Below, piece by piece: positions 22,475 to 63,580 of a DNA stretch of 64,000 nt; position 1 is the first letter of the stretch; every line of letters starts with the position of its first letter. The position numbers and the translations under genes are program-made. This DNA is from Candidatus Iainarchaeum sp. Lineage in GTDB: Archaea > Iainarchaeota > Iainarchaeia > Iainarchaeales > JAZDDZ01. The notes under the pieces are model-generated. The model was not told the origin of the DNA. It saw only the letters and a program-made list of their open reading frames with translations, and searched no databases. The stretch spans positions 32,001 through 96,000 of the forward strand of contig JAZDDZ010000047.1 of assembly GCA_043809245.1 (NCBI GenBank), written 5' to 3'.

Positions 22475-22584
22475 TGGCGGGCGGGGAGGGATTTGAACCC
22501 TCGACCTACAGCTTAGGAGGCTTGCAAGAAATGCAGAAAAAACTGTCACCTCATGTTGCCCTATCCAGGCTAGGCTACCCGCCC
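22475..22584 (-). tRNA. tRNA-Arg(CCT) with 32-nt non-canonical intron (22522-22553) at position 29/30; CCA encoded
   Basis: Stems GGGCGGG/CCCGCCC, ACAGC/GCTGT, GAGGG-TTCAAAT-CCCTC; full BHB: AGG/CCT, GCAA/TTGC, GAGGTG/CATTTC with CAT and AAG bulges. Confidence 0.92.
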
Positions 22585-23510
22585 AGCAATTCAATCATCT
22601 TACGTGACCTTATTGCCTTATTGGGGTGGTAAAAATCTATGTTCTGCAAGAATTTAAAAAGCATCTCCTTATTTCTAATTCTTAGCTCGTAAGTATCAGA
22701 TATACGGTCAGAAGAGGGGGATTTTGCCACCCGCTTGTAAATTTTAAGGGTCTCGATGCCAAAGTTTAGAAGGGTCTCTTTAATTTCTTCTATAAACTTT
22801 TTATCCTTGAAAGTGAGATCTATGAAAAGCTGCTTGGCTTTTTTTGGATTTTTTGGTAAAGTTCCATCAGAATCAAATAAACCGGCTAAGTAATATTTTA
22901 GGACTGATTTATCATTTTTAATTAGGCCCGGAATCCTAAGATTTTCTTTTACTCCCCGATTTATCCCGAATATATTATGCAAAAAAGAATTCACAACAAT
23001 GCTCCTTAGCGGGAGACAAGGGATAAATCTTTTAGATAATGTCGATTTAACGCTTATTATTTTCCCCGATAAACCAAAAAGATATTCTGAAATGGAATTA
23101 ACTTTTTCCAACTGTTCCTTGTATTCATCAGAAAAAATAACCCGCTTTCTATCAGAAGTTAAACAACCAGCCCCTTGCAAATACCCGATGAAATACGCTA
23201 AATTCGGATCAAGTTGTTTAGGCAGGTGCACCTTCTTATTTTTTCCCGTAAATTCAACATTATCCAAAGCATAAACTTTAGAAAAAATCGATGAATCAAT
23301 ATTTTTAGCAAATGATTTAAGCACTCTGATTGAACAACAAGGTTTTGTTGTCAAATGCCTATGGTAATAGCCTTTTGAAATGTTTAGGAGATCAGCTGCT
23401 TGTCTACAAGTTAGACCCGAATTCATATGGCTTTCCTTTAGAATTTTAGCAATGCCGAAAATCATCACATTACTGTCAAGTTCTTCATAGTAATCTAGAA
23501 GTTTAGCCAT
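22575..23510 (-). CDS. Free-standing HTH + LAGLIDADG homing endonuclease-like protein
   Basis: LAYFIGYLQGAG and YLAGLFDSDG motifs; N-terminal HTH; stop codon lies within first 10 nt of tRNA-Arg. Confidence 0.85.
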   Translation of the reverse strand: MAKLLDYYEELDSNVMIFGIAKILKESHMNSGLTCRQAADLLNISKGYYHRHLTTKPCCSIRVLKSFAKNIDSSIFSKVYALDNVEFTGKNKKVHLPKQLDPNLAYFIGYLQGAGCLTSDRKRVIFSDEYKEQLEKVNSISEYLFGLSGKIISVKSTLSKRFIPCLPLRSIVVNSFLHNIFGINRGVKENLRIPGLIKNDKSVLKYYLAGLFDSDGTLPKNPKKAKQLFIDLTFKDKKFIEEIKETLLNFGIETLKIYKRVAKSPSSDRISDTYELRIRNKEMLFKFLQNIDFYHPNKAIRSRKMIELLGG

Positions 23511-23583
23511 AAAAAAAGTTAAATTTTAGAGTATATATTAGTTTCTGGACCTCATTTCCTCTGCCAGCCAAAGGTGCAACCAT

Positions 23584-31936: not shown

Positions 31937-32008
31937 GCCGCGGTAGCACAACGGCAATGCAGCGCACTCGTAATGCGCAGACTGGGGGTTCGATTCCCCC
32001 CCGCGGCT
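31937..32008 (+). tRNA. tRNA-Thr(CGT), intronless
   Basis: GCCGCGG/CCGCGGC, GCGCA-CTCGTAA-TGCGC, GGGGG-TTCGATT-CCCCC, T discriminator. Confidence 0.95.
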
Positions 32009-32082
32009 TTTTCTCTGCTTTTACCTTGTGCCCTGCCAGTTCAGAGACAAAGAATAAAAATTGATTGCTCCTTTTTTATAAT

Positions 32083-33078
32083 ATGAATAATAGGGTTAGT
32101 TTTAGCTCTAAAAAAGAAGCTTCAAATTTTTTTGAGTGCGCTAGAAACACGGGAAAGTTCAATTCATGGCGGGAACTCGCTGTTTTTCTAAATGTGCGTA
32201 TTGGAAAATTGTGGGATTACAGGAAAGGGACATATTCCCTGCCTTCGGGCAAATTCGAGGCTCTGATAAATCTCGTGCCATCGCGCATGCGAAAAAGGTT
32301 CGAAAATGCCGTAACAATAATGCCCTCCAACTGGGGCCAATCAAAGGGCGGCTGCATTACTTATTCTAGACATAAAAAAATTTTCGATGACGGAAGGGCT
32401 AAAGCCAGGGAAAACAGGTTATTAAATGCAAAATACGACTTTGACTCAGCCATGCCTTTAAATGAAAAGCTTTGCGAATTTTTAGGCGCATTTATAGGAG
32501 ATGGTTTCACAAACGCTTACAACGGGCATTACATGACCCAGTTTGCAGGACATTCCAAGTTGGATGCGGACTATTACAACAATTTGATTATTCCGTATGC
32601 GAAGCAATTATTCGGCTTTGAAAAGCCATATATAAGAACAAAAGCCAATGCGTTATGGGTTACTTTTTATTCAAAAAGATTATTTGAATTTATGACTAAA
32701 AGGTTCGGGTTTCCTGCAGGGAAAAAATCCGCTTCAGTTTTAATACCTGGAGAGGTATTGGATTCAGACAAGACCAACATTTGTGCGCTGTTGAGGGGGT
32801 TATTCAATACTGATGGTGGAGTTCACTTTGACAAACGAAAAATTTACAAAACACCTTACATGCGAATCGAATTACACATGAAAAATGAACGGATCATCGA
32901 ACAAGTTTATATTGAGTTAATAAGATTGGGAATTAATGCCAAAAGAAATAGTTCAAGCACGAGAGTGCAGATAAATTCAGAACAAGCAGTTTCAACATAT
33001 CTCAATCAAATCGGGTTTTCCAATAAAAGACATCTGGACAGAATTAGTTCCAGGGGCGTTTCCAATTCCACCTCATAG
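32083..33078 (+). CDS. Free-standing HTH + LAGLIDADG endonuclease-like protein
   Basis: LCEFLGAFIGDG and LLRGLFNTDG; N-terminal SWRELA..L HTH; WGQSKGG linker also seen in 51288. Confidence 0.88.
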   Translation: MNNRVSFSSKKEASNFFECARNTGKFNSWRELAVFLNVRIGKLWDYRKGTYSLPSGKFEALINLVPSRMRKRFENAVTIMPSNWGQSKGGCITYSRHKKIFDDGRAKARENRLLNAKYDFDSAMPLNEKLCEFLGAFIGDGFTNAYNGHYMTQFAGHSKLDADYYNNLIIPYAKQLFGFEKPYIRTKANALWVTFYSKRLFEFMTKRFGFPAGKKSASVLIPGEVLDSDKTNICALLRGLFNTDGGVHFDKRKIYKTPYMRIELHMKNERIIEQVYIELIRLGINAKRNSSSTRVQINSEQAVSTYLNQIGFSNKRHLDRISSRGVSNSTS

Positions 33079-33112
33079 CAGGGGGTCGGGGGTTCAAATC
33101 CCTCTCGGGGCT
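33077..33112 (+). pseudogene. Orphan tRNA 3' half (Thr-like, T discriminator)
   Basis: AGCAGG-GGGTC-GGGGG-TTCAAAT-CCCTC-TCGGGGC-T plus T-run; no matching 5' half found nearby. Confidence 0.75.
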
Positions 33113-33139
33113 TTTTCATTCAGATTAAAGGGATTTCTA

Positions 33140-49902: not shown

Positions 49903-50187
49903 ATGAAAACCCTTACAGCCGTTGTTGATGATGATTACGTTCAAACCCTTGATTTCGTTATCCGTTCATCCAAGCTTTACTCTTCTAGAAGCGAATTCAT
50001 CAAGGATGCCGTTAGGGAGAAAATGGAGGCGCTTGTCAGGCTAAGTGAAGAATTGAGGGACATAAGGGAAGCCTCAAAACGCCTTGCATCAAAGGCAAAG
50101 GCAAGGGGCTGGAACGGCTCTATTCCCTCAAAAAGCGAGAGGGAAAAAAATGCAAACCAGTTTTTGAAGGAAAAAGGCTTCAAATGA
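49903..50187 (+). CDS. RHH antitoxin (convergent with PIN gene)
   Basis: Y.SRSEFIKDAVREK. Confidence 0.8.
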   Translation: MKTLTAVVDDDYVQTLDFVIRSSKLYSSRSEFIKDAVREKMEALVRLSEELRDIREASKRLASKAKARGWNGSIPSKSEREKNANQFLKEKGFK

Positions 50188-50605
50188 AGTCCTTCGGTTC
50201 AATAACGTTTATACTTCGATTTATTTTTTCAAAATCTTTTGCATTGAATGAAACAATACAGTCACACCCTGCCTTGATTGCGATTGCGGCATGAATTGAG
50301 TCTGGTCGGTGGACCCCGCTTAACGCAATCCTTTTTTCTTCCAGGGAATGCTCTTCAGTGAAAGCAGCCTCCTCAAATGTAACGCCAATTGATTGAAAAT
50401 ATTCGTTGGCCTCTTCCCTGCTTATTTTAATGCATTTTTTTACCTCAAAATAAAACAGGCTGGATAAAACAACGGTATCCCTGTTTTTCCTTACCCGGCT
50501 AAAAAACAGCTGTGCTTCTGCCGACAAAAACCTGAATTGCCTGTCCATTTCATCTCTTAACGCGGAAATCAGGACATTGGAGTCAAGGTAAACCCTCTTT
50601 GGCAT
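50180..50605 (-). CDS. PIN-domain (VapC-like) toxin
   Basis: VYLDSNVLI, D..HAA.A, IVSFN.KDF. Confidence 0.85.
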   Translation of the reverse strand: MPKRVYLDSNVLISALRDEMDRQFRFLSAEAQLFFSRVRKNRDTVVLSSLFYFEVKKCIKISREEANEYFQSIGVTFEEAAFTEEHSLEEKRIALSGVHRPDSIHAAIAIKAGCDCIVSFNAKDFEKINRSINVIEPKDFI

Positions 50606-50652
50606 AAAAACAATTAATGCCATACATCTTTTTTATTATCCGCTTAAACAGT

Positions 50653-51156: not shown

Positions 51157-51202
51157 ACATTAATAGAAAAAGACCGTAAGGGTTAAATTAGTTGTTTTTT
51201 AA

Positions 51203-51220
51203 TGGGCACGGGCGGATTTG
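51203..51220 (-). pseudogene. Orphan tRNA 3'-terminal fragment (CAAATCCGCCCGTGCCCA)
   Basis: T-loop/T-stem/acceptor 3' strand; 51201-51220 matches 52355-52374 at 15/20 nt. Confidence 0.65.
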
Positions 51221-51287
51221 GCAGCGGCAACTCACTGTGTTTGCGGAGATTTAAATATAAAAAAGCCGAATATTTAATAGTGGTTAA

Positions 51288-52436
51288 ATGGAAGATAAAA
51301 GGCTGAAATTTCAGCCCGGCAAGCAGAGGGCTTTGTTGGAGTTATTTTTTTACAAGCACGGTTTCACCCAAAGAGAATTAGCCGGAAGATTAGGGGTATC
51401 AAAAGGCACAATAGCAGCATATTTCACGGAGAAAAACAACCTATTGCTTTCAACTTTCCAAAAGCTTGAATCAATTGATCCCGCTGTAAAAGGATATGAA
51501 AAATTCATAGAAAAAGAATTGCCTCTCGGTTGGGGCGCAAAAAAGGGCGGTATCGAAAGGGCAAAACTTATTCCAAACAAGAAAACCTATTATGAAGGTA
51601 TAAGGCATATAAAAAAATTGAAAGAATTAGCTAACGCTAGGAAAGAAAAAGAAAAAATAGAGAATCACCCTTTAGTTGAGGAGCTAAAGAAGGCTAATGT
51701 TGATTTGGAAGCCGTACTGGCAGTTTGCCTTTTAACGGATGGCTCACTCTGCATTAAAGGAAAAAATCTTAGGATTAGTTACACAACTAAAGACCATATT
51801 CTAGAAAAGCTGCTTTTTTCAATGATGAACGAACTGTCAGCCAGGGTTCCAGGAATTGGTTTTTCACAAAGTGCTAATACCGTAAGGGTGAGTGATGACG
51901 CGCTAGCGAAAAAATTACTCAACCTCAGCCCGAATTTCAAAACAAGCCCAAGCAGACATGAGACCAACGAGGATTATCTTAAAGAACCGCAGCCAACCAT
52001 ACGCTTTCTTTCAAAATCCAATCAACAGACAAAAAAATGGGCTTTGAGGTTTGCATTCACTGCGGACGGCTACATCAGCAAGGCGGCAAATGGAAAAACA
52101 GAATTGGGGCTCTCCTGTTATCACACGAATCTTGCAATTGAATGGAAACAGATTATAGAAGAATTTGGCTTATCCTGCACGCTTGCCCAAAACAAAAATT
52201 CTTGGTGCGGCATATCTGGAATCAGAATTCAAAACATGGATTCTATTGGAAAATTTTTTCAGCTTGGCGGGTTCATAGATGGAGTTAAAATATCCAATAA
52301 AAGCAAAAAATTCAGGGGGCTGGCAAAAAACGAGCTGTTGACACAGATTGTGGAAATGGGAAAGGGAGGACTCGAACCTCCGACCCCCCGGTTATCAGCC
52401 GGATGCGCTAGCCACTGCGCCACATTCCCAAAATAA
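51288..52436 (+). CDS. Free-standing HTH + LAGLIDADG endonuclease-like protein reading through antisense tRNA-Ile
   Basis: XRE-like FTQRELAGRLGVS; LAVCLLTDG and LRFAFTADG. Confidence 0.8.
   Translation: MEDKRLKFQPGKQRALLELFFYKHGFTQRELAGRLGVSKGTIAAYFTEKNNLLLSTFQKLESIDPAVKGYEKFIEKELPLGWGAKKGGIERAKLIPNKKTYYEGIRHIKKLKELANARKEKEKIENHPLVEELKKANVDLEAVLAVCLLTDGSLCIKGKNLRISYTTKDHILEKLLFSMMNELSARVPGIGFSQSANTVRVSDDALAKKLLNLSPNFKTSPSRHETNEDYLKEPQPTIRFLSKSNQQTKKWALRFAFTADGYISKAANGKTELGLSCYHTNLAIEWKQIIEEFGLSCTLAQNKNSWCGISGIRIQNMDSIGKFFQLGGFIDGVKISNKSKKFRGLAKNELLTQIVEMGKGGLEPPTPRLSAGCASHCATFPK
52357..52429 (-). tRNA. tRNA-Ile(GAT), intronless; U6-U67 acceptor mismatch
   Basis: GGGAATG/CTTTCCC, TCCGG-CTGATAA-CCGGG, GGAGG-TTCGAGT-CCTCC. 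Confidence 0.93.
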
Positions 52437-52541
52437 AGCAAACAAAACGAGCAACAAAGAAATTCCGTAAAAAAAGGGTTTTAAACCCTCGCTACGACAA
52501 TAACAAATCCAGTTAAAAAAGGCTTAAAAACGGTATTTTTG

Positions 52542-52556
52542 TTGCCGCAGCGGCAA
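52542..52556. repeat. Palindrome TTGCCGC-A-GCGGCAA
   Basis: Recurrent motif (also 3495, 55838, 62406; half or variant at 51221, 23554). Confidence 0.75.
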
Positions 52557-52602
52557 TCTACTCCCCCGAAAACTGCTTAAAAGACAAAACAAGAATCATT
52601 AC

Positions 52603-53547
52603 ATGAAGTTCTCCATTTTTGATGTAGATAACCAATGGCTTGCAGAAAAAATCTGCATTGATGGAATAAACCAAGAAGCTAAAGACATTATAAAAAGTTT
52701 GGGCGGACCATCAAAAACCTGCAAACTTTTAAACTGCAAATATACGCGATTAAAAGAATGGTCTAACGGCAGGTCGCCCATACCTTTACATGTTTTGCTA
52801 AAAACGCTTAATGCATGCGCCGACAGTTTTAAGGAAAAAATCAAAAACAAGATTGACTCAAAAGAAATTAACCTCAAGGCACAATACTCGCCGCACAAAG
52901 TAAAATTTCCAAAGAAAATGACTCCTAACTTGGCTTACATAACAGGAGTAATTTTAGGGGACGGACATCTAGCCAGCAGCAAAGATAATGAAAAGGGAAA
53001 CTGGGCAATATCTGTTTGCTTTGACAATTTAATGCATCTCAAGGTCTACAATCAATATATTAAGGAAATATTCGGCATCGAGCCTAAATATTATTTTTGC
53101 CAAAAGAAGAATTATTATGTTTCCTATTTTGCATCATTGACTGTCCACTGGTTTTTAAGGAATTTCCTCGAAATTCCAAATGGTAATAAAAGCAGCCTAA
53201 TCCAAATGCCCGAAGTAATTGCCAATGGAGATGAAAAAATAATTTCAGCCTTCATTAGCGGGCTATTTGATTCCGATGGCACAATAACCAAAAACGGGGA
53301 ACTTAAATTTGCAAGCACAAGCGAAAGAATTGTACACCAGGTTAAGGCTGCGCTAGCTTGTTTCTCAATTAAAAGCTATCATTCAAAATGGCTTAAATCG
53401 GAAAAATACAAAATGCTTCACACAATCAGAATAGGCAAGGAATCAATTCAATCATTCGAGAAAACAATCGGATTTAAGCATCCAAGGAAAAAGCAGCTAT
53501 TAAAAATGTTTTCAAATAAGACTTTAGTTAATAGCCCCGTCGTCTAG
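52603..53547 (+). CDS. Free-standing HTH + LAGLIDADG endonuclease-like protein
   Basis: LAYITGVILGDG and FISGLFDSDG; HTH ...W.NGRSPIP; stop codon lies within first 15 nt of tRNA-Gln. Confidence 0.88.
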   Translation: MKFSIFDVDNQWLAEKICIDGINQEAKDIIKSLGGPSKTCKLLNCKYTRLKEWSNGRSPIPLHVLLKTLNACADSFKEKIKNKIDSKEINLKAQYSPHKVKFPKKMTPNLAYITGVILGDGHLASSKDNEKGNWAISVCFDNLMHLKVYNQYIKEIFGIEPKYYFCQKKNYYVSYFASLTVHWFLRNFLEIPNGNKSSLIQMPEVIANGDEKIISAFISGLFDSDGTITKNGELKFASTSERIVHQVKAALACFSIKSYHSKWLKSEKYKMLHTIRIGKESIQSFEKTIGFKHPRKKQLLKMFSNKTLVNSPVV

Positions 53548-53651
53548 CGGCCAAAGCAATAAACGTATTTTCGTTAAAATTATGGTTGTTGCTGCCGAAA
53601 GGATGGCAGGCTCTGGACCTGCGGACAGGAGTTCGAATCTCCTCGGGGCTA
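53533..53651 (+). tRNA. tRNA-Gln(CTG) with 46-nt D-loop intron (53554-53599)
   Basis: AGCCCCG/CGGGGCT, GCAGG-CTCTGGA-CCTGC, AGGAG-TTCGAAT-CTCCT; BHB-like CGGC/GCCG helix, CAA and AAA bulges, AGCAA/TTGCT. Confidence 0.92.
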
Positions 53652-54066: not shown

Positions 54067-54501
54067 ATGCAGCCAATTGCATTAATCGCTGACACAAACG
54101 CCTTGCTTTCAGCGCTGCTAAAAGACAATTTGTCAAGAAAAATTTTTTTAAACCCGAAAGTGAAGCTTTCCTCGCCACAGCACATGAACGAAGAAGTCAA
54201 CAGGCACGCAGAAGAATTAGCCAAAAGAATCGGCATAACGCAAAAAGAGTTCGTTCACGCATTCGAATTGCTTTTAGAAAAATCAGGGCTTGAAATTATT
54301 GCGGAAAAACAATACGAATCCCTTAAGCCAATGGCATTGGAATTATGCCCTGAGGGGCACAAGGACGACTGGCCTTTCCTCGCCTTGGCTTTAAAGCAAA
54401 ACTGCGCTTTATGGTCAAACGATAAAGCGCTCAAAAAACAATCAACAATTGAAGTACATTCAACATTTGAATTAAAGCAAAAACTCGGAAAACTGTTATA
54501 G
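54067..54501 (+). CDS. VapC-like PIN toxin
   Basis: IADTNALLSAL, DDWPFLALAL, LWSNDK.L. Confidence 0.88.
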   Translation: MQPIALIADTNALLSALLKDNLSRKIFLNPKVKLSSPQHMNEEVNRHAEELAKRIGITQKEFVHAFELLLEKSGLEIIAEKQYESLKPMALELCPEGHKDDWPFLALALKQNCALWSNDKALKKQSTIEVHSTFELKQKLGKLL

Positions 54502-62418: not shown

Positions 62419-62500
62419 ATGTACTCCCCCCAAAGCTAAATAAATGCTATTTTTCCAAATTAATAGGAAACAAAGTAGTTAAAATGCTTGGTGATTAAGA

Positions 62501-63580
62501 TTGGAAAATCCTATTTTGACTTATAACGAATTCATAATACATTTCCCATCAATTAAGCCGAAAAGCAAGAGGTTAGCCAACAAACTGTTGCCACTGTATC
62601 CTTCCACTGAACTTGCCCAGATAACTGGCGCCTTGTTGACCGACGGGCATGTCGACTGGTATGTTTCTGACGGCAGTCCGAGAACAAGGAAAATTATTTT
62701 ATACTCAAGCAATGAAGAGGAATGTGAGTGGTTTTCTGGTTTGGTCAAAAAAGTTTTTGCCGTTGAACCAAAAATTACAGCCTATTTGCCAAAATACGGG
62801 CAATTCAAGTTGCAGCCCTACAAAGCGGTCTTAAATAATTCAGTCGTTGCCCAAACAATGATTCTTTTAGGGGTTTGCGCGGGAGACAAAACAAAATGCG
62901 GGTATAAGGTTCCAGAATGGATTCTGAATGGAAACAAGAAGATTAAAGCTGCATTCCTGAAAACTGTTTTTACTTTCGACGGTTCAAAACCATACAAGAG
63001 AAAAAATACGTGGACTATCAGCTATAGCACAACCGTGACAAAAGAAGCCCTGCCTAACGGCTTTTTGCTTTTCAAACAGCTTAACCAACTTTTAAAAGAA
63101 TTCGGCGTAACTTTCAGTTCAATTCCAACAGCACACTTGAAAGAGAATGGGAAATTCATGCTAATATCATCCGCATCATCTAGAGAGTCAATTACTAATT
63201 TTTTACGGAATTTGGGCTATCTTAACGAAAACAAGCAAAGAAGGCTGGCTTACGCGGTTGCTGAAATTTTTAAGCTCGCAAGAATACGCTCTCCAAAAAA
63301 TAACCACTTGTTAAGCAAATTCAAAAAAATTTTTGGAACAGACAAAGAAACAGCTTTTTTTGTTAATAAGCTCCTTAAAACAAAGTATACAAAAAGGCAA
63401 TTTGAGCATTTCCGGAGAAACGAAACAATGGCGCCTTTGGAAATACTTGCCTTAGCGCTGAAAAAAACCAAAACAAAAAATTATTTGCCTGACTGGGCAA
63501 AATTTTTGCACAGCCATTATCTTTCTCTAGTTCCGTTGATGAATTCTTCAACCATTTCTTTGGCTGCAGATGGAGAGTAG
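62501..63580 (+). CDS. Free-standing LAGLIDADG endonuclease-like protein with C-terminal HTH-like segment
   Basis: [12 protein letters not shown] and [10 protein letters not shown]; VP.WI linker. Confidence 0.8.

Follow-up and report, generated by a model that had tools for sequence, protein, structure and literature searches.

The open reading frame ORF1 (51288-52436, plus strand, 382 amino acids) lies in a 64,000-nucleotide (nt) stretch of the genome of Candidatus Iainarchaeum sp. (GCA_043809245.1), referred to here as the window, which corresponds to positions 32001-96000 of the 108-kb contig C47. The source assembly (genome label G000) comprises 1.48 Mb in 55 contigs, with a G+C content of about 44%, and is the lone member of its family among the genomes of the order. 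ORF1 is probably a free-standing homing endonuclease cassette that is targeted to the isoleucine transfer RNA (tRNA) gene, tRNA-Ile, is expressed from its own promoter and on arrival displaced the old 3' end of this tRNA.

Read from left to right, the locus begins with the relic of a tRNA-Ile(GAT) 3' end, positions about 56/57 to 73 (CAAATCCGCCCGTGCCCA, 51203-51220, minus strand), which is followed by a promoter-upstream motif with its left half replaced by the relic (GCAGCGGCAACTCACT, 51221-51236, plus strand) and by the likely TATA-like box of the ORF1 promoter (TTTAAATATA, 51250-51259, plus strand), spaced from motif and ATG as at other copies of the motif. The conserved coding region of 355 amino acids (51288-52352, plus strand) is delimited by Pfam matches, alignments and a structural model, and combines an Xre-type helix-turn-helix (HTH) with a two-motif LAGLIDADG core. 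A non-conserved C-terminal tail with the stop codon (52353-52436, plus strand) is drawn from the antisense strand of the resident tRNA-Ile(GAT), a complete gene with a U6-U67 mismatch (52356-52430, minus strand).

The ORF1 protein and its family

Pfam searches place the HTH at amino acids 23-62 (HTH_3, 29.8 bits, above the cut-off) and give a LAGLIDADG_3 score of 27.5 bits against a cut-off of 22.5. The two LAGLIDADG motifs, LAVCLLTDGSL and LRFAFTADGYI, are both kept across 21 aligned family members, in which D151 and D260 reach at least 90% conservation and G152 and G261 show no variation. As a sequence-profile search of the PDB with the family profile matched only a HipB-like HTH and left the LAGLIDADG core invisible, a fold search was needed to see it. 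The AlphaFold2 model of ORF1 (mean predicted local distance difference test score 92.4) contains the alpha-beta-beta-alpha-beta-beta-alpha core fold, twice repeated, and Foldseek returned 137 PDB chains at E <= 0.001, with WhiA, I-Tsp061I and I-DmoI in the lead and template modelling (TM) scores, normalised to the target, of about 0.7 over about 200 columns for the top matches. By predicted fold and by motifs, ORF1 is a single-chain, two-motif, I-DmoI-like LAGLIDADG homing endonuclease.

The family is tiny, with 20 proteins matching at E <= 1e-10 among 5.8 billion, none of them named. It also includes decayed copies: the reading frame in G089 is broken by a TGA, and those of L109 and L128 contain internal stops.

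Linkage to tRNA gene ends

ORF1 without its tail was searched in 196 genomes of the order (73 genera) and matched in 27 genomes from 17 genera, a rare and patchy distribution. Ten whole-genome loci with full-length or nearly full-length homologues (39-52% identity) were examined together with a metagenome set of 46 returned loci, of which 45 were analysed, L153 being excluded for a match of only 29 amino acids. tRNAs were called by ARAGORN and with Rfam covariance models (cmscan), and part of the metagenome tRNAs were assigned by eye. An opposite-strand tRNA-Ile(GAT) was found by ARAGORN at the end of homology in nine of the ten whole-genome loci, and at the tenth, L031, the tRNA-Ile was recognised by a T-arm match. 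Among the metagenome loci, ARAGORN places an opposite-strand tRNA-Ile(GAT) directly past the homology in 17/45, while six more have an intron-bearing tRNA at this place, three of them from odd ARAGORN calls and three seen by eye. The site against the tRNA-Ile 3' end is thus kept across many genomes at protein identities of 39-58%, and a fixed site with a sporadic distribution is the behaviour of a mobile element.

Relatives of this convergent type use the other end of the gene or other tRNA genes. In a sister group of 37-43% identity the coding end abuts the 5' end of a same-strand tRNA-Ile (three loci by ARAGORN and nine by eye, with introns in most), and the members of a third group, at 32-34% identity, precede tRNA-Lys(CTT) or tRNA-Arg. 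On a maximum-likelihood tree of 32 rows, from which L109 and L128 were dropped for their internal stops, the three arrangements require two changes, the minimum; the mean after shuffling was 10.3 and 0 of 200 shuffles came out as low. The branches of the convergent, co-directional and Lys/Arg groups have supports of 82/73, 83/83 and 99/98, respectively. In all arrangements the sequence past the gene starts with (A/T)GGGNNNG, corresponding to the acceptor stem as entered from either end of a tRNA gene.

Four loci of the co-directional sister clade (L115, L116, L118 and L123) harbour a tRNA-Ile 5' fragment of about 21 nt, some 75 nt before the start codon, which ends ...GGT in the D-loop and is fused to a conserved promoter stretch, TTTAnnCGTTAAnnTTAAATA. 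In the resident tRNA-Ile, that D-loop position is the site of an intron.

The end of ORF1 follows from its position against the tRNA. The resident gene was located at 52356-52430 (minus strand) by ARAGORN and at 52357-52429 by Rfam (67.4 bits), and the initial annotation, prepared from the letters of the window, correctly described the end of the reading frame as its reverse complement: codons 357-381 are the exact antisense of the tRNA and are followed by one codon and the stop. The weight which that annotation gave to the read-through is not borne out. The conserved protein ends ...KNELLxxVV, one to three codons short of the tRNA 3' end, and beyond this point the tails of the ten whole-genome loci vary in length, four continuing in a G(F/L)EPPT frame, three in an RNRT frame and three stopping at or before the tRNA edge, with the same three patterns among database proteins. 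Furthermore, antisense tRNA-Ile is free of stops in 57 of 108 allele-frame combinations (36 alleles). Since the frame of entry into the tRNA differs among orthologues, some of which stop at its edge, the tail is incidental, an accident of a gene end butted against a tRNA, and a functional C-terminal tail encoded by antisense tRNA is ruled out by the same comparison. Genes of the ORF1 family have no stop codon of their own; translation ends where the antisense tRNA provides one.

The displaced tRNA-Ile end

On the minus strand the relic runs from the end of the T-loop through the 3' strand of the T-stem and the 3' strand of the acceptor stem to the discriminator. The initial annotation had reported a tRNA 3' fragment beside ORF1 in the same orientation as the resident gene, and both its coordinates and its identity were reproduced: 51201-51220 and 52355-52374 agree at 15/20 positions, and at 12/17 over the tRNA part alone. 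When the alleles of relatives are aligned the relic finds its counterpart, with 16/17 identity to the tRNA-Ile(GAT) allele of the gene-free relative G134 and 15/17 to three other alleles, which disposes of the doubt, raised with the initial annotation, that the fragment might match no allele in relatives. As background, 13 of 2.96 million positions of the genome reach 15/17 against any of 23 alleles, several of these being real tRNAs. Judged by this allele comparison, 51203-51220 is the genuine 3' end of a different tRNA-Ile allele. A split-tRNA interpretation of the relic was rejected, as no 5' partner (GGGCACG plus D-arm) was found in the assembly, which at 91.8% completeness does not prove its absence. 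No other tRNA-Ile(GAT) was found in the assembly, so the resident gene presumably works.

Comparable relics occur beside other members of the family. Locus L033 (genome G011) has the same layout, its relic AAATCCCTCCTTTCCCA being 17/17 identical to the allele of G032 and 12/17 to its own resident tRNA, and fused to a truncated motif; the chance of this match is about 2e-9 per position for 35 alleles. The relic of L109, TTCAAATCCGTCCTTGCCCA, is fused to CGCACCGGAA 86 nt ahead of the start codon, and that of L129, GGTTCAAATCCGGGCATGCCCA, lies 350 nt upstream, past a small ORF. A second tRNA 3' copy at 15/17 or better was found in 2/23 loci of one scan, and another gave credible 3' relics in 2/30. 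The inner ends of the relics fall at positions 57, 57, 54 (L109) and 52 (L129), each relic resembles a different natural allele, and the relic loci L029, L033 and L129 belong to three different sub-clades, L109 being absent from the tree. Independent events are therefore likelier than one inherited scar.

Several weaker matches were not counted as relics. Those of 14/17 in L110, L117 and L118 (3' type) look like chance, and those in L131 and L134 appear to belong to a complete tRNA nearby.

The small ORF of L129 has a parallel elsewhere. A module of about 200 nt upstream of an ORF1 orthologue (L060:2169-2431, with copies in G123, G124, G127 and G129) holds an ORF of about 33 amino acids with a strong Shine-Dalgarno-like GGAGGTGA, and is found in several copies per genome in one genus, each ahead of a different LAGLIDADG gene. 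This small-ORF module may be part of the cassette; in L129 the relic lies beyond it.

The promoter-upstream motif

The sequence GCAGCGGCAA starts at 51221, directly against the relic, and recurs at 52547 ahead of the neighbouring gene ORF2 (GCAGCGGCAATCTACT, 52547-52562, plus strand, from the motif scan). The initial annotation was right that the tRNA fragment is fused directly to this sequence, but the sequence is no boundary motif specific to the element, as it is spread genome-wide ahead of unrelated genes. Described as GCA[CG]CGG[AC]AN, 2-3 nt and AC[TC], it has 31 copies in the genome against 1.7 in shuffled sequence, four of them in the window (51221, 52547, 55842 and 62410) and 27 at other sites. 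An ATG-started ORF of at least 50 codons follows within 120 nt after 26 of the 31 copies, usually at a distance of 40-60 nt and with a TATA-like box in between that begins about 10-15 nt past the motif. Genes of varied kinds lie behind it, among them other stand-alone LAGLIDADG genes and, on C42, a DNA methyltransferase-like gene. ORF1 orthologues in other genomes, some from other families of the order, are likewise preceded by versions of the motif. GCAGCGGCAA is a general promoter-upstream element and not a mobile-element terminus; a role as terminus or as endonuclease site is ruled out by the many unrelated genes that it precedes. At ORF1 the left half of the motif (consensus ...ATTTCCGCA) has been replaced by the relic, so that ...GGATTT passes directly into GGCAGCGG.

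ORF2 and other tRNA-linked endonuclease genes

The description of two tRNA-linked elements side by side was also upheld, the second consisting of ORF2 and tRNA-Gln(CTG). ORF2 (52603-53547, plus strand) is a stand-alone LAGLIDADG gene (LAGLIDADG_3, 62 bits) whose stop codon lies in the D-arm of tRNA-Gln(CTG) (53533-53651, plus strand). This tRNA contains a D-loop intron of about 46 nt (about 53555-53600), as indicated by ARAGORN after deletion of 45-47 nt and by partial Rfam hits. At 20 loci with ORF2 orthologues (41-52% identity) a same-strand tRNA-Gln(CTG) lies 0-70 nt past the homology in 20/20, and a D-loop intron with conserved ends is present in 10 of the 19 complete tRNA-Gln(CTG) genes.

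For comparison, 80 tRNA-Gln regions were sampled from genomes without a known ORF2 orthologue, and 77 were parsed. Among these, 42 Gln(CTG) genes are intron-free and lack a LAGLIDADG match over at least 1.1 kb of upstream sequence, two have an anticodon-loop intron only, and three have a D-loop intron; immediately upstream of two of the last there is a decayed piece of ORF2 (E 1e-5 and 6e-16), and the third lies 353 nt from a contig end. The D-loop intron thus occurs at 12/21 loci with an ORF2-type gene or remnant and at 0/44 without (Fisher p = 7e-8, the related genomes not being independent). Adjacent and co-occurring in this way, as in collaborative homing, the endonuclease gene and the intron of tRNA-Gln(CTG) form a pattern that fits the two travelling together. 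For ORF1 and tRNA-Ile no intron was found at the relic boundary in any convergent locus.

Further LAGLIDADG genes, several of them beside tRNA genes, are present in the same genome. A minus-strand LAGLIDADG ORF in the window (22478-23525; ORF at C47:54578-55525) runs into the 5' end of an intron-bearing tRNA (C47:54478-54584, Rfam 46.5 bits), where its TAG stop codon lies, a layout like that of ORF2. Between 31937 and 33135 (plus strand), tRNA-Thr(CGT) (31937-32008), a LAGLIDADG ORF (32065-33075) and the 3' part of a tRNA (about 33080-33135) follow one another; the last piece, of about 40-55 nt, has a T-arm, the acceptor strand TCGGGGC and the discriminator T, making this a second case in the window of a complete tRNA, an endonuclease gene and a relic, with the gene in sense orientation. 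On contig C10 (G000:C10:38843-40121) a 24-nt 5' tRNA fragment ending in the D-loop precedes the promoter motif, a 304-amino-acid HTH and LAGLIDADG ORF and a complete tRNA with an insert in its D-region, a stretch that ARAGORN misreads as a tRNA with a 1186-nt intron. On C2 (G000:C2:4254-5600) a LAGLIDADG ORF with the promoter motif is truncated past its first domain, and a putative IS200/IS605-like transposase frame, with an HVHL motif seen by eye, lies directly downstream. Finally, a stand-alone LAGLIDADG ORF with the promoter motif stands at 62495-63577 (plus strand) of the window, with no tRNA seen alongside.

Origin of the arrangement

Spread driven by the endonuclease is suggested by three features taken together: the repeats are not identical, their boundaries vary and one endonuclease clade is strictly linked to one tRNA end. 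Under this proposal the putative enzyme would cut cassette-free tRNA-Ile genes inside the gene, at or 5' of the T-loop (positions 52-57), and a cassette-bearing donor would template the repair of the break. Where the donor came from another lineage, homology would be available on the tRNA side only. The copied strand would carry the 3' part of the donor tRNA, the endonuclease gene and its promoter, and would meet the other side of the break in a non-homologous join, possibly at the ATTT that both the T-loop complement and the left flank of the motif contain. The join would cut into GCAGCGGCAA, the promoter-upstream motif of the gene, the recipient's own tRNA end (about positions 57-73) would be stranded past the promoter, and the resident tRNA would be wholly or partly derived from the donor.

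A number of observations weigh against this account. Of about 27 convergent-type loci whose upstream sequence is long enough to judge, about 4 have a relic, so most insertions left no relic or their relics have decayed. The T-arm of the resident tRNA is intact and, if the target lies there, the immunity of the cassette-bearing allele is unexplained; the T-loop base (G57 versus A57) was considered as an immunity mark and discarded, since gene-bearing and gene-free alleles do not differ consistently in it. Among the genomes compared, there is also no close pair in which one member has the gene and the other lacks it.

The acceptor stem of the resident tRNA adds little. The U6-U67 mismatch noted in the initial annotation is real, being flagged by cmscan and recomputed, but its interpretation as the sign of a chimeric 3' end loses ground. 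The mismatch is present in 4 of 50 distinct tRNA-Ile(GAT) sequences: the window allele, that of G009, through which a 445-amino-acid ORF1 variant reads, and those of G063 and G072, which lack an ORF1-type gene in the 700 nt downstream. GGGAATG, the 5' strand of the resident acceptor stem, forms an A4-G69 mismatch with the relic and U6-U67 with the resident 3' strand, and is one change from pairing with either. Because the mismatch also occurs in gene-free genomes and GGGAATG pairs no better with the relic, U6-U67 is weak evidence for a chimera.

Short and near-identical duplications of tRNA 3' ends without an endonuclease gene are also common in these genomes (25/25 on C16 of the source genome; also L027, L049, L083 and L007), so that a second process makes such repeats as well. 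On C16 (G000:C16:36577-36814, minus strand) tRNA-Arg(TCG) is followed, about 155 nt further on, by a perfect 25-nt copy of its 3' end, and the spacer consists of consecutive hairpins and contains no ORF.

These duplications speak for the strongest alternative, an unlikely one in our judgement, in which the locus is a decayed recombinase-driven element at a tRNA-Ile attachment (att) site running from T-loop to 3' end, or a mini-element moved in trans. The tRNA would have been restored by the attP copy of the element, which would then have decayed to the endonuclease gene alone, unless a tyrosine recombinase acted in trans. The relic, beginning in the T-loop (56/57) and ending at the discriminator, has the extent of a tRNA att repeat, and this segment is the classic one in the account of tRNA integration given by PMC3293823, where a similar layout in Caldiarchaeum is read in the same way by Sugahara et al. 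A search of the genome for PF00589, covering tyrosine but not serine recombinases, found six tyrosine recombinases, some near other tRNAs, on six contigs other than C47. There is none in the element or on its 108-kb contig, and ORF1 is the sole ORF in the 1.15 kb between the repeats; the initial annotation had already recorded an endonuclease gene as the only cargo and no integrase, and both points hold. Moreover, the repeats agree at 12/17 positions and each is closest to a different natural allele, the inner ends of the relics vary (52, 54, 57 and 57), and dozens of loci have an endonuclease gene at the same tRNA-Ile spot with no recombinase seen in the listed flanks of the ORF1-type loci. 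The comparison with attL and attR made in the initial annotation is therefore sound as to form, with the T-loop-to-3'-end segment at both ends, and fails as to agent, given 12/17 repeats from two alleles and no recombinase. A site-specific homing endonuclease family accounts for the att-like layout better than a recombinase does.

An origin inside an intron is less probable again. The gene would once have resided in a bulge-helix-bulge intron at 56/57, a complete tRNA copy would have replaced the 5' exon, and the 3' exon would survive as the relic. Non-canonical introns are known in the loops of archaeal tRNAs, and it is in such loops that the relic boundaries fall; in the sister clade and the ORF2 family the gene goes together with an intron in the D-loop of the neighbouring tRNA, and 5' relics end in the D-loop. 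LAGLIDADG genes are also carried by archaeal ribosomal RNA (rRNA) introns (PMC6125680). Against such an origin, the resident tRNA is complete (67.4 bits) and ORF1 is antisense to it with its own promoter, where an endonuclease gene within a sense-strand intron would be expected; inspection by eye showed no complementarity of the sequence ahead of the relic to the resident T-loop region that could form a bulge-helix-bulge, and a T-loop intron is found in no convergent-type locus.

The least credible alternative, a domesticated WhiA-like HTH and LAGLIDADG DNA-binding factor at the tRNA-Ile/tRNA-Gln locus with the relic as unrelated debris, would suit WhiA as top Foldseek match, the HTH and the fixed site by a tRNA promoter region, but is very hard to reconcile with the patchy distribution (27/196 genomes), the conservation of both catalytic aspartates, the decayed copies in G089, L109 and L128 and the recurrence of relics beside the gene.

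The locus in related genomes

tRNA-Ile(GAT) is paired divergently with tRNA-Gln(TTG) in many relatives. The likely ancestral state is seen in G036, which has no endonuclease gene: GatB is followed by a YjbQ-like gene, tRNA-Ile (minus strand) and tRNA-Gln (plus strand), with 70 nt from the YjbQ-like gene to the tRNA, and in the gene-free flank of G134 a regulator gene lies 30 nt from the tRNA-Ile 3' end. In the window the corresponding distance from the YjbQ-like gene to the tRNA is 2.5 kb, taken up by an RHH/PIN pair, a rubrerythrin-like gene, the relic and ORF1. The divergent partner here (52356-53651) is tRNA-Gln(CTG) with ORF2, versus tRNA-Gln(TTG) in L016, L017, L024, L025 and L028; the tRNA-Gln(TTG) of the source genome is located on C28. 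In G134 (L094) a 5' tRNA-Gln fragment is found 125 nt upstream of tRNA-Gln.

Comparisons within genera (G133 with G130-G135, and G125 with G123-G129) gave flanks about 70% identical and inserts differing by several genes, and so did not delimit the cassette exactly. One public read run, containing 0.05 of the sampled words, yielded a 151-nt contig inside ORF1 and a tRNA-like piece, with no joint, empty site or circle, an uninformative outcome. On either side of the tRNA island, RHH (CopG-like) and PIN-domain genes converge with an 8-nt overlap (49903-50623), and a PIN_2 gene has a small upstream ORF (54067-54501); these are likely toxin-antitoxin pairs.

Comparison with known systems

Full-text literature searches found no publication linking LAGLIDADG genes to archaeal tRNA gene flanks or relics. 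The closest parallels are stand-alone genes that sit beside a conserved host gene, as in the intronless and collaborative homing of phages (T4 seg and mob; F-CphI next to the psbA intron of cyanophage S-PM2; PMC2790892, PMC6083498). ORF1 shares with phage homing genes its own promoter and a spread presumed to proceed by break repair with co-conversion of flanks, while the intron beside ORF2, found only together with the endonuclease gene, recalls collaborative homing. In contrast to the phage genes, the one described here is of LAGLIDADG type, resides in a cellular archaeon, has a chromosomal tRNA gene end as its putative target, lacks its own stop codon and leaves displaced tRNA ends. SegB, for its part, lies in the tRNA region of T4.

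Free-standing mitochondrial endonuclease ORFs such as that of Allomyces atp6, which insert in the 3' end of a protein gene, bring a replacement end and leave the old terminus downstream as a pseudo-fragment, are likewise mobile units that carry a substitute gene terminus and strand the original. The difference lies in the host gene, here a tRNA, in the archaeal setting and in the antisense orientation. With I-DmoI and I-Tsp061I of rRNA introns ORF1 has in common the single-chain two-motif fold (TM to target about 0.7), an archaeal host and a stable-RNA gene; it differs by its location outside an intron, its antisense orientation, an extra N-terminal HTH and a sequence identity of about 15%. 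SSV- and pNOB8-type elements with their attL and attR sites resemble the locus in the T-loop-to-discriminator repeat beyond the insert and in the intact tRNA gene, and are set apart by its lack of an integrase, the 12/17 repeats, the variable inner boundary and a cargo of a single endonuclease gene.

A further archaeal case is the tRNA-Thr(GGU) of Caldiarchaeum subterraneum, in which a 5' tRNA fragment, a 1,868-bp insert and a complete tRNA follow one another (Sugahara et al. 2012, PMC3293823). The insert is described there as a repeated region, an 813-bp ORF against the tRNA and a new tRNA 5' part with an intron at 24/25; a function classifier labelled the ORF a putative recombinase, and the authors proposed a pNOB8-type integration (PMC3293823). 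The layout matches the co-directional relatives L115, L118 and L123 and the C10 locus, and is the mirror image of the ORF1 locus, from which it differs in that the ORF1 relic is a 3' end and no intron is involved.

Implications

A practical caution concerns annotation: read-through of tRNAs by ORFs in these genomes is an artefact that comes from the lack of a stop codon, and a short tRNA-like piece beside such a gene is a relic and not a gene.

In a wider sense the locus touches on the open question of how archaeal non-canonical tRNA introns, tRNA fragments and split forms originate, and according to a 2026 preprint the route of arrival of Asgard tRNA introns is still open. The window and its relatives present endonuclease families each locked to one end of one tRNA gene, with displaced tRNA ends left behind, and in the neighbouring Gln case a D-loop intron that occurs only alongside the endonuclease gene or its remnant. 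As a tentative generalisation, which we hold somewhat more doubtful than not, LAGLIDADG cassettes homing to specific tRNA gene ends could be a general engine of archaeal tRNA gene disruption. Each clade may be dedicated to one tRNA and one side of it (tRNA-Ile 3', tRNA-Ile 5', tRNA-Lys/tRNA-Arg and tRNA-Gln(CTG) 5'), entering in the D- or T-loop, bringing a replacement gene end and stranding the old one as a fragment, and entry from the 5' side may install a new non-canonical intron, which then protects the allele. If this holds, the Caldiarchaeum 'recombinase' element would be re-read as an endonuclease cassette, and these cassettes would provide the missing route by which non-canonical tRNA introns are gained and by which tRNA fragments and split tRNA genes arise.

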